A stretch of 45,701 nucleotides of DNA, from positions 1-45,701 of the forward strand of contig JAFGAR010000203.1 in the NCBI GenBank assembly GCA_016933575.1, written 5' to 3'. The stretch comes from Candidatus Thorarchaeota archaeon. Its GTDB lineage: Archaea > Asgardarchaeota > Thorarchaeia > Thorarchaeales > Thorarchaeaceae. The position numbers were made by a program, and so were the translations under genes. Below, piece by piece: positions 13,326 to 15,946 of the stretch (position 1 is its first letter; every line of letters starts with the position of its first letter). The notes beneath the pieces were generated by a model. It was not told where the DNA came from. It saw nothing but the letters and a program-made list of their open reading frames with translations, and ran no database searches.

Positions 13326-13465
13326 TTTCATACCCACTCATAACAGCTTCAAGGTAATGTTTATATTTGCATATCTACGCGAAGCGCTTGTACAGTTTTA
13401 TTTGAACTGGCCAGAGTAGTGCGATTACTTTGTGCTACACGACCAGTAAAAGGAGGAACTAATTG

Positions 13466-15106
13466 ATGAGTCAACAGGTACCGGTGCTAGTACTAAGAGA
13501 AGACACCGAGCGAACACGCGGTCGTGATGCTCAGAGAAATAATATCATGGCTGCAGTTGTTATCGCAGAAGCTGTCAAATCAGCCCTTGGCCCTCGTGGA
13601 ATGGACAAGATGCTCGTGGACAGTTTTGGTGACATTACAGTTACAAATGATGGAGCTACCATCCTGAAAGAGATGGATGTTGCCCATCCAGCTGCTAAGA
13701 TGGTCATTGAGGTCGCAAAGACTGTAGACGACGAAGTAGGAGATGGAACGACAACAGCCGCGATTCTGACTGGAGATCTGCTAAAGCAAGCTGAAACATT
13801 ATTGGATCAGAAGATACATCCGACAATCATTATCAATGGCTATAGAAAGGCTGCACAGAAAGCCCTTGAGGTCATTGATTCAGTTGCTGAAAAGATTGAT
13901 CCGGCAGATGCAGACTACAAGAAAATTTTGATTGATGTTGCTAAGACCTCTATGTCTAGCAAGTTTGTATCAAACACCAGAGACCCCCTTGCAAAGATTG
14001 TTGTGGATGCAGTTCTCGCAATCGCTAAAGATCTTCCAGAAGGAGAGGTCTTGAACGTGGAGAACATCCCCCGTCAGAAGCAACATGGAATGTCAGTGGA
14101 CAAGACAGAGTTAGTAAAGGGTCTTGTACTCGATAAGGAAGTAGTTCACCCAGCCATGCCAAAGAGGGTGGAAGGTGCCAAGATTCTTCTACTGGAATCT
14201 GCCCTTGAAGTAACAAAGACAGAGTTTGATGCTAAGATCTCAATCACAGATCCCAGTGGAATGCAGAACTTCCTCCAAGAGGAAGAACGAATGCTCAAGA
14301 GAATGGTGGACAAGATTATCGAATCTGGTGCAAATGTCGTTATCGCTCAGAAGGGCGTGGACGATGTTGTACAGCATTTTCTGGCTAAAGCAGGTATTAT
14401 GGCAGTAAGACGCATCAAGAAATCTGATGTTGAAAAAGTCCATGAGACAACTGGTGCAACAATTGTATCAAAGATTCAATCACTCACAGCTGCAGATCTA
14501 GGAAAAGCCAAGCTCGTTGAGCAGAGAGATGTCGGCGATGATAAGATGTTATTCATTGAAGGAACACCAAAGTCAAGCGTAGTCACTCTCTTGGTCCGAG
14601 GAGGAACGGATCACATCGTTGATGAAGTAGACAGAGCCCTAAATGATGCCCTTCATGTTGTGGCGGATGTAGTGAAGCACCCATATATCACATATGGAGG
14701 CGGTTCTCTTGCTGCAGAGATTTCAAAGCAACTAAGAGAATTCTCATCAACACTCGATGGCCGTGAACAATACGCAGCAAATGCCTTTGCTGATGCTATT
14801 GAGTCATTACCAAACACTCTTGCTGAGAATGGTGGACTTGATCCCATTGACATAATTGTGCATCTCAGAAAGGCACACACCGATGGAAACGTTCATCACG
14901 GTATTAGTCTCGAAAAGGGAAAGGTTGATGACATGAAAAAGTCTCGAATAATCGAGGCTGCGATTGTCAATAGGCAGATTGTTATGTCAGCTGCGGAAGC
15001 GGCTCAAATGATTTTGAAGATTGACGATGTCATCAGCTCGAAGGGCGGCCCAGGTGGAATGGGTGGCGGTCCTGAAGGTGGAGACTTCGGCGGCGACGAC
15101 GAATAG
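13466..15106 (+). CDS. ths: Thermosome (group II chaperonin) subunit
   Basis: [31 protein letters not shown] and a GGM-type tail; SD AGGAGG at ~13450. Alpha/beta assignment is not resolvable by eye. Confidence 0.97.
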
Positions 15107-15142
15107 AAAGAGTCAAACGTAGAACAAAATCAGGTGTAGCTC

Positions 15143-15841
15143 ATGTCAGACGGCTCTGAAAAGAACGAAAAGGATACAGAAGAGGCTGAAGAAGCCGTAG
15201 AAGGTGATGATGAAGCACTTACTACGGAAGAGATTGTAGCCCTTCTTAGCCATATAGGCGGGGTTGGCCCCAAAACAGCTGAGAAACTTGCAGAGGCAGG
15301 ATACGATAGTATCGAGAAAGTATCACAGGCTGAGAAAGAAAAGCTTGCAGAAGCTGTCACAGGACTTAGTGTAGCAAAAGCTGAAGCTGTCATTCTTGAG
15401 GCTCTGGATCTTCTTGAGAAAATCGAGTCTGGAGCAGTTGACCTCAGTGGCAAATCAAAATCCAAGCGAAAGAAAGCCCCGGAACCGGAACCAGAGAGGC
15501 ATGAGCTTACACCAATTGCAGAAATCGAACGTGCAGAGGAACGTAAGAATCTCGTTACTGGATATGACGAAGACAAGGCCAAAATTGGGATAACAATTGG
15601 TCCGAAATGGCTTACGAAATATGAAAAAGCACGAATCATTGGTGCTCGAGCACTTCAGATTTCTATGGGCGCACCAGTAATGATTGATGTTTCGAATATA
15701 CAGAATGTAGGACGATTTGGTTTTGCTGAAGAAGAACTACGTTCAGGAATTCTTCCCATGACAGTTCGTCGAACACTGCCCACTGGTGAGTACTCAGATA
15801 TTCCATTATCGGTTTTATTGAAGCATACGAGGTTGGATTAA
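15143..15841 (+). CDS. rpo6: RNA polymerase subunit Rpo6 (RpoK/RPB6/omega) with N-terminal acidic tail and helix-hairpin-helix domain
   Basis: C-terminal 'LTKYEKARIIGARALQISMGAP...EEL..GILPMTVRRTLP' is the Rpo6 signature. N-terminal 'HIGGVGPKTAEKLAEAGYDSIEKV...GLSVAKAEAVI' is an HhH pair. Confidence 0.93.
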   Translation: MSDGSEKNEKDTEEAEEAVEGDDEALTTEEIVALLSHIGGVGPKTAEKLAEAGYDSIEKVSQAEKEKLAEAVTGLSVAKAEAVILEALDLLEKIESGAVDLSGKSKSKRKKAPEPEPERHELTPIAEIERAEERKNLVTGYDEDKAKIGITIGPKWLTKYEKARIIGARALQISMGAPVMIDVSNIQNVGRFGFAEEELRSGILPMTVRRTLPTGEYSDIPLSVLLKHTRLD

Positions 15842-15946
15842 TTCCAGCCTCTTTCTACTTTCTTTTTTCCAAATGCATACAATTCATATGTCATCATGCC
15901 ACGCCTTAAAAGCGACGGGTCCTTTACACATTACCCTCAGTGGTGA

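Follow-up and report, generated by a model that had tools for sequence, protein, structure and literature searches.

A conserved, tethered helix-hairpin-helix module on RNA polymerase subunit Rpo6 in one family of Thorarchaeota

Rpo6 is ordinarily a stand-alone archaeal protein that has neither a folded helix-hairpin-helix (HhH) domain nor a basic patch, and the unfused forms of Asgard archaea are about 95-110 amino acids long. In a contig assigned to a Candidatus Thorarchaeota archaeon (JAFGAR010000203.1, assembly GCA_016933575.1; the window, i.e. the whole stretch of DNA analyzed here, has 45,701 nucleotides), the gene for this subunit also appears to encode an HhH domain. The locus thus raises the questions of whether the two domains are truly parts of one protein, how and when they were joined, and what a tethered domain might do on the polymerase. 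The fusion in Thorarchaeota is already known, from a brief mention in a recent paper (Shematorova and Shpakovski, Int J Mol Sci 2026;27:4679; PMC13257274) and from public databases, which annotate these proteins as subunit K. That paper concerns this very protein family and feature: in Thorarchaeota Rpo6 it describes a long N-terminal sequence that is modelled by AlphaFold3 as a folded helical element, and it cites the HhH-fold paper of Shao and Grishin. It contains no analysis of distribution, conservation or linker, and does not treat the reverse fusion in Kariarchaeaceae, the co-occurrence with eL32 or the Top6A-array relatives described below. In our literature search, no other paper on the Thorarchaeota HhH-Rpo6 was found. 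As far as can be told, what is added here is a family-level census, the recognition of the HhH domain and a basic patch as one selected unit, a co-occurring fusion of eL32, and an independent fusion in Kariarchaeaceae.

The HhH domain and the Rpo6 core do lie in a single full-length frame, and the domain boundaries proposed in the preliminary description hold to within a few residues (Table 1). Neither a stop codon nor a frameshift was detected between the domains, the frame was also uninterrupted in relatives, and a Logan contig from the probable source run had 0 differences to the rpo6 stretch, which, coming from the same sample, is not independent support. Between codon 1 and codon 175 of rpo6 there is no in-frame ATG, GTG or TTG, and codon 175 is already within the core. 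Therefore, a separate core could not be made by ordinary internal initiation, and an internal translation start is ruled out. The GGTG element was found 6-10 nt before the first ATG in 20 of the 20 orthologous rpo6 loci examined. In a six-frame search of the whole genome the fused gene was the sole Rpo6 match; the source MAG is 85.5% complete with 6.9% contamination, which leaves some room for a second Rpo6 copy. It is possible that the thermosome gene and rpo6 are co-transcribed. Two metatranscriptome runs from the source study yielded zero contigs on this stretch and were uninformative on expression, and a promoter scan with the sigma-70 model, which is not relevant to archaea, gave only background-level hits. 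An antisense open reading frame of 169 amino acids (window 15130-15639, minus strand), which overlaps the 5' two-thirds of rpo6, matched no family; most probably it simply reflects sense-gene codon composition.

Table 1. Features of the rpo6 locus and segments of the encoded protein (window coordinates)
Feature	Position	Strand	Remarks
Thermosome subunit gene, conserved neighbour	13463..15106	+	Ends 36 nt upstream of rpo6
Shine-Dalgarno-like GGTG	15133..15136	+	6 nt upstream of ATG; read from sequence
Complete rpo6/rpoK gene (HhH-Rpo6 fusion)	15143..15841	+	232 codons plus stop; ATG start; no internal stops
Acidic, disordered, fast-evolving N-tail, residues 1-27	15143..15223	+	pLDDT <50 for residues 1-25; pN/pS about 0.6-1
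(HhH)2 domain, five helices, residues 28-95	15224..15427	+	Pfam HHH_5, AF2, Foldseek
Conserved basic patch (Lys/Arg run, net +5), then PEPEP, residues 100-118	15440..15496	+	Alignment, charge count
Acidic, mostly disordered tether, residues 119-143	15497..15571	+	H-x-L-P-P and L-x-T-G motifs conserved; pLDDT 45-74
Rpo6/RpoK/Rpb6 core, residues 144-232	15572..15838	+	NCBIfam NF002207, Foldseek
Hairpin and T-rich run after the stop codon, likely transcript end	15829..15871	+	Terminator-like site 15829-15851, then T-rich tract; consensus match only

Within the genus, where synonymous sites are saturated, pN ranged over 0.09-0.21 in the HhH domain, 0.11-0.18 in the linker and 0.12-0.19 in the core. 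By this measure the HhH domain and the linker are under purifying selection and about as constrained as the core, and free evolution is confined to the first 27 residues. Purifying selection on both segments, together with more than 100 orthologues of the same architecture, shows that the gene is not a chance open reading frame. We also considered an artefact, in which a frameshift or a missed stop had joined the gene for a small HhH protein to an Rpo6 gene, or in which an internal start yields the core alone. Apart from the incompleteness and contamination of the MAG, nothing was found in its favour. On the other hand, the same unbroken frame recurs in some 80 independent genomes and in over 100 proteins from metagenomes, selection at the amino acid level extends across the domain junction, the Shine-Dalgarno-like site is kept at the first ATG while in-frame starts before codon 175 are absent, and the source run, assembled a second time, gave an identical sequence. 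An annotation or assembly artefact is effectively refuted.

The two folded parts of the protein were assigned by sequence models and by structure prediction. Pfam HHH_5 (PF14520) matched residues 34-87 (E 4e-12, 46.8 bits against a 27-bit cut-off), whereas at the other end RNA_pol_Rpb6 (PF01192) matched residues 154-199 (27.7 bits against 26) and the NCBIfam RpoK equivalog NF002207 matched residues 144-231 (E 1.4e-28, 99 bits against 71). In an AlphaFold2 model built on 38 orthologues, residues 1-25 were disordered, residues 28-95 formed five helices (28-35, 43-52, 57-62, 65-71 and 77-95) with pLDDT of about 80, residues 96-139 were unstructured, and residues 140-232 formed the core with pLDDT >90. 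A Foldseek search with the core returned chain F of Pol I/II/III and chain K of archaeal enzymes (TM (target) 0.7-0.88, rmsd 1.2-1.6 A, 39-56% identity). By sequence and predicted fold, residues 144-232 are a full member of the family that comprises archaeal Rpo6/RpoK, Rpb6 (RPABC2) and bacterial omega. The best structural match of the N-domain was the N-terminal domain of RadA/Rad51 (for RadA, an rmsd of 0.9-1.0 A across 57-58 residues and 38-40% identity), and its PDB sequence matches included an (HhH)2 repeat of Topo V (residues 624-681, the best one, E 2.7e-7), a RadA/Rad51 N-domain (that of Pyrococcus RadA) and the N-terminus of H. marismortui (Haloarcula) L32e; the N-domain of Rpo6, that of RadA/Rad51 and the Topo V repeats share the Pfam HHH_5 class. 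Unlike RadA and Topo V, however, Thorarchaeota Rpo6 has no recombinase or topoisomerase core, and the recombinase model TIGR02236 scored 32 bits against a cut-off of 361, matching the N-domain only and not the full length.

Conservation is not limited to the helices. Across 38 aligned sequences, G42, K48, S76, K79 and A80 of the HhH domain were invariant, and surface positions outside the hairpins were conserved as well. The first hairpin has the canonical form L-x-x-I-x-G-V-G-P-K, with G40-V-G42 conserved, and the second (G74-L-S76) is a degenerate form that is also present in the N-domain of RadA/Rad51. The linker motif quoted in the preliminary description, SGKSKSKRKKAPEPEPE, corresponds to residues 102-118. 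The Lys/Arg run, the Pro/Glu stretch (consensus PEPEP) and H-x-L-P-P are kept in all 16 genera of the family, with a net charge of the patch between +4 and +8, and the tether up to the core is nearly constant in length (31-32 residues); the N-tail varies from 11 to 69 residues. Median net charges alternate along the chain (tail -5, HhH -5, patch +5, tether -4.5, core +4); in the protein studied here the net charge is -10 in the tail and -7 in the HhH domain, for which the family range is -10 to +2. Two Thorarchaeota species have an Rpo6 variant (P0002, 325 aa; P0003, 320 aa) in which the HhH domain, the basic patch and the Pro/Glu stretch are tandemly duplicated before the core. Since these elements were duplicated together, the basic patch belongs to the module. 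Judged from these alignments, the so-called linker is no neutral filler.

To place the fusion among Asgard archaea, 400 species genomes of the phylum were searched with the fused protein. It was present in 79 of the 85 genomes of one Thorarchaeota family and in all 16 of its genera (52-82% identity), i.e. the fusion is shared by the relatives. Five of the six fusion-less genomes were searched again: four had no assembled Rpo6 core at all, and in one a contig edge left just the final 38 residues. The genomes checked are assembly gaps. Unfused Rpo6 was not found in any of the 85 genomes of this family; one apparent stand-alone Rpo6 of 90 aa (in G327) was rejected because it is truncated by the end of its contig. 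Outside the family, among the matches listed, only the core was covered, starting at residue 103 or later. Open frames of 185-192 aa upstream of Rpo6 at two loci of other Asgard archaea (L050 and L051) were dismissed as AT-rich read-through and are not extensions. A word-index protein search returned 278 matches; the 120 that were listed almost all had 200-260 aa and an HHH_5 annotation, most were also annotated as Rpb6, and the named ones among them were RNA polymerase subunit K of Candidatus Thorarchaeota. Among 1.84 billion representative proteins, only three full-length N-terminal fusions were found, all Thorarchaeota-like, in addition to fragments.

The genomic neighbourhood helps to date the insertion. 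The gene order thermosome, rpo6, membrane protein, hisS was observed at every family locus that was long enough and also in the sister family, whose Rpo6 at this locus has 153 aa with an acidic tail and no HhH domain. Two loci of a distant Asgard family (L050 and L051, in G067 and G077) have two thermosome genes before a plain Rpo6 of about 98 aa. This adjacency in a distant family implies that the linkage of thermosome and rpo6 genes is older than the HhH insertion, and the tail of the sister family suggests that an acidic tail was already there when the HhH domain was inserted, on the stem leading to one family. From these comparisons, the HhH domain looks like a late, family-specific insertion into a pre-existing acidic tail. 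The suggestion that the fusion could explain how the eukaryotic RPB6 tail originated is not supported by this comparison: the HhH domain is limited to one Thorarchaeota family, and the sister family and other Asgard archaea have acidic or plain N-termini at the same locus. The fusion therefore has no bearing on how the RPB6 tail arose.

A second fusion with the opposite order was detected in six protein clusters (P0152, P0164 and P0276-P0279), in which the Rpo6 core is followed by a charged, Lys-rich linker and one or two C-terminal (HhH)2 domains. The core of these proteins most resembles that of another Asgard family, in which 10 of 12 genomes gave a match, and a 190-aa form (L054:655-1227, plus strand, in G049) is named by NCBI as subunit K of Candidatus Kariarchaeaceae. 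Most genomes of that family (Kariarchaeaceae, of the Heimdall group) have a plain Rpo6. On the sequence comparisons, the C-terminal HhH domain of Kariarchaeaceae was gained independently of the N-terminal one of Thorarchaeota; it is not mentioned in PMC13257274. That an HhH domain was added twice independently, once at either end of Rpo6, suggests that selection favoured such a domain in this part of the enzyme. In one Kariarchaeaceae genome (G052:C157:4677-4940), the Rpo6 core lies within a 536-aa open frame shared with an upstream LarA-like (lactate racemase) gene, with a corresponding protein of 553 aa (P0205); this is either a real fusion or the result of a missing stop between neighbours.

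The HhH module of Rpo6 has several relatives, some of them in the same genome. Its nearest paralogue there is the N-terminal HhH domain of ribosomal protein eL32 (46% identity, E 1e-11), in which an N-terminal (HhH)2 domain is followed by a Lys/Pro-rich tether of ~100 residues and then the core. The gene for this 287-aa protein (L058:1054-1917, minus strand, equal to G000:C57:188056-188916) lies within an S8-L6-L32e-L19e operon. Full-length matches to HhH-eL32 were found in the same Thorarchaeota family only, in most genera and with one to three or more HhH copies, and the sister family and other families matched the extended eL32 with core-level E-values only. In two genera of the family, at the loci examined, the eL32 extension has no HhH domain. 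Nothing relevant on the HhH extension of eL32 was found in the literature. Haloarchaeal L32e (NCBIfam PRK12766) and the eL32 of this genome share the layout of HhH domain, Lys-rich tether and conserved core subunit with the fused Rpo6. They differ from it in that eL32 is ribosomal, its linker is much longer and Lys/Pro-rich, and its HhH domain is about neutral (hand count). Two paralogous multi-pass membrane proteins (L059:592-2304, minus strand, in G000:C156; L060:1-1017, plus strand, in G000:C135) carry an acidic linker and a C-terminal (HhH)2 domain, and HHH_5 is their sole Pfam match. By analogy, their layout resembles that of a membrane-anchored DNA receptor. Counted by hand, the HhH domains of eL32 and of the membrane proteins are roughly neutral to slightly basic, in contrast to the acidic one of Rpo6.

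Outside this genome, the best matches other than Rpo6 were multi-HhH forms of eL32 and HhH arrays on Top6A/Spo11-like proteins. The latter occur in Thor- or Loki-labelled MAGs (P0124, 950 aa; P0128, 746 aa), have seven and four N-terminal (HhH)2 domains, respectively, and are reminiscent of Topo V; the Top6A of the genome studied here is unfused (G000:C7:40482-41507). We rejected the possibility that the module was copied from radA, as the N-domain of the genome's own RadA is dissimilar (E 0.43). The Rpo6 HhH domain has much the same similarity (38-46% identity) to those of eL32, the membrane proteins, the Top6A arrays, Topo V and RadA, and a domain of only ~60 residues is too short to point to a donor.

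What might the module do on the polymerase? We tentatively prefer, as a possibility that falls a little short of probable, that the arm is a tethered, sequence-independent grip on duplex DNA near the cleft. In this model, the core of the single 232-residue chain should sit in the polymerase as it does in every archaeal and eukaryotic enzyme. The family ancestor would have inserted a composite module (the five-helix (HhH)2 domain, the Lys/Arg patch and the Pro/Glu stretch) into the older acidic tail, with ~45 disordered residues connecting it to the core. The hairpins and the adjacent basic patch would hold the phosphate backbone without sequence preference, and the tether could let them reach the cleft or downstream or promoter DNA, so that the enzyme would bind DNA more tightly while initiating or elongating. 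In cis, the grip may be modulated by the acidic N-tail. Both DNA binding and the docking site are inferred; the AlphaFold2 model is silent on docking, and pLDDT in the tether is low.

A grip on DNA is favoured by the canonical first hairpin with invariant K48 and K79, by the basic patch that travels with the HhH domain as one unit, by the closest relatives of the module (arrays of four to seven HhH domains on Top6A/Spo11-like subunits, with Topo V as the best PDB match) and by the convergent gain of an HhH domain at the C-terminus of Kariarchaeaceae Rpo6, there too beside a Lys-rich linker. The N-terminal tail of Rpb6 in yeast and mammalian pre-initiation complexes can enter the active-centre cleft and touch its basic residues (PMC9935396; PMC10237034); therefore, an arm on ~45 disordered residues at the same point could reach the cleft and the entering DNA. 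An engineering precedent is the fusion of HhH motifs to Phi29 polymerase, as the title of PMC8313265 indicates. Some features, however, cast doubt on DNA binding. In contrast to its paralogues, the HhH domain carries a net negative charge; its second hairpin has the degenerate form; and the occurrence of the same module on ribosomal and membrane proteins shows that it is promiscuous and may not bind DNA everywhere.

The acidic character of the domain leads to a different reading. (HhH)2 domains of acidic character, among them the NusA acidic repeats, serve in protein binding; NusA AR2 binds alpha-CTD, and ERCC1 pairs with XPF. It is somewhat unlikely, but a real possibility, that the arm likewise recruits or contacts a basic partner, i.e. 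a transcription factor, a chromatin protein or another HhH domain, and that the patch has another role. The median charge of the HhH domain, the acidic tail that flanks it and the conserved surface outside the hairpins would fit such contacts. A transcription-factor-like role was suggested in PMC13257274, and the eukaryotic RPB6 tail binds TFIIH p62 (PMC8754651). However, the nearest relatives of the module are multi-copy arrays on a topoisomerase subunit, which is typical of DNA binding, and a Lys/Arg patch that accompanies the HhH domain fits contact with nucleic acid. The acidity could also serve a third purpose, which we regard as very unlikely: the tail and the HhH domain might act as a DNA mimic that occupies the positive cleft of idle polymerase, as an enlarged version of the yeast Rpb6 tail, which fills the Pol II cleft via acidic residues and clashes with nucleic acids (PMC9935396; PMC10237034). 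Both segments are acidic in Thorarchaeota, and the corresponding position in the sister family is occupied by a purely acidic tail. Nevertheless, charge mimicry needs no folded 68-residue domain with canonical hairpins and invariant lysines, the tail evolves fast in sequence and length, and the conserved basic patch speaks against a purely acidic mimic.

The paralogues on other proteins could instead mean that the HhH and Lys-rich module does not tune transcription but keeps the expression machinery on the nucleoid or close together, a reading that we consider quite unlikely. The similarity of the eL32 and Rpo6 HhH domains, the long tether of eL32, the restriction of full-length extended-eL32 matches to the same family, in most of its genera, and the two membrane proteins with a C-terminal HhH domain would all agree with shared localisation. 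Still, co-occurrence in one clade amounts to a single evolutionary event and not to a correlation, and ribosomal proteins have also gained an HhH domain where Rpo6 is not fused, as in haloarchaeal L32e. The predicted complex of the Rpo6 HhH domain (residues 25-100) with that of eL32 (residues 1-66) had a score of 0.00, which is evidence neither for nor against pairing. A broader proposal, which is more speculative and unlikely, would be that Asgard archaea repeatedly armed omega/Rpo6 with a tethered HhH domain, at the N-terminus in Thorarchaeota and at the C-terminus in Kariarchaeaceae, and that the Thorarchaeota modules on Rpo6, eL32 and membrane proteins tie the polymerase, the ribosomes and sites on the membrane to the nucleoid, resulting in a lineage-specific organisation or coupling of gene expression.

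We return to the tethered grip and to how it compares with known polymerase arms. The likeness to the alpha-CTD raised in the preliminary description is fair as an analogy, in that a conserved, small helical domain of the HhH type sits on a flexible tether of a polymerase assembly subunit, here the only Rpo6 of the genome, and would be able to reach DNA or regulators. It does not extend to membership of the alpha-CTD family: PF03118 (RNA_pol_A_CTD) was absent among the 13 Pfam families that the Thorarchaeota protein studied here matched with E up to 1, and it overlapped only faintly with the Kariarchaeaceae protein P0152. In addition, the alpha-CTD is located on alpha and is present in two copies, whereas the Thorarchaeota HhH domain is on the omega homologue, in one copy, and is net acidic. 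To our knowledge, there is no UP-element-like target for the Thorarchaeota arm. Rpb6 has in common with it an acidic, disordered N-terminus, but itself has neither a folded HhH domain nor a basic patch. Another lineage-specific, small helical element of an archaeal polymerase is Rpo13 of Sulfolobales, which makes non-specific contact with duplex DNA near Rpo5 (as summarised in PMC13257274); it is a separate subunit with a different fold, and homology to the Thorarchaeota arm is not expected.

As a small domain that is easily expressed in isolation, the arm lends itself to direct tests. It sits on the subunit whose eukaryotic homologue has a tail that enters the cleft and binds TFIIH. If it does bind DNA or a factor, the fused Rpo6 of this Thorarchaeota family would carry an arm within a core subunit and would represent a natural archaeal counterpart of the bacterial alpha-CTD.
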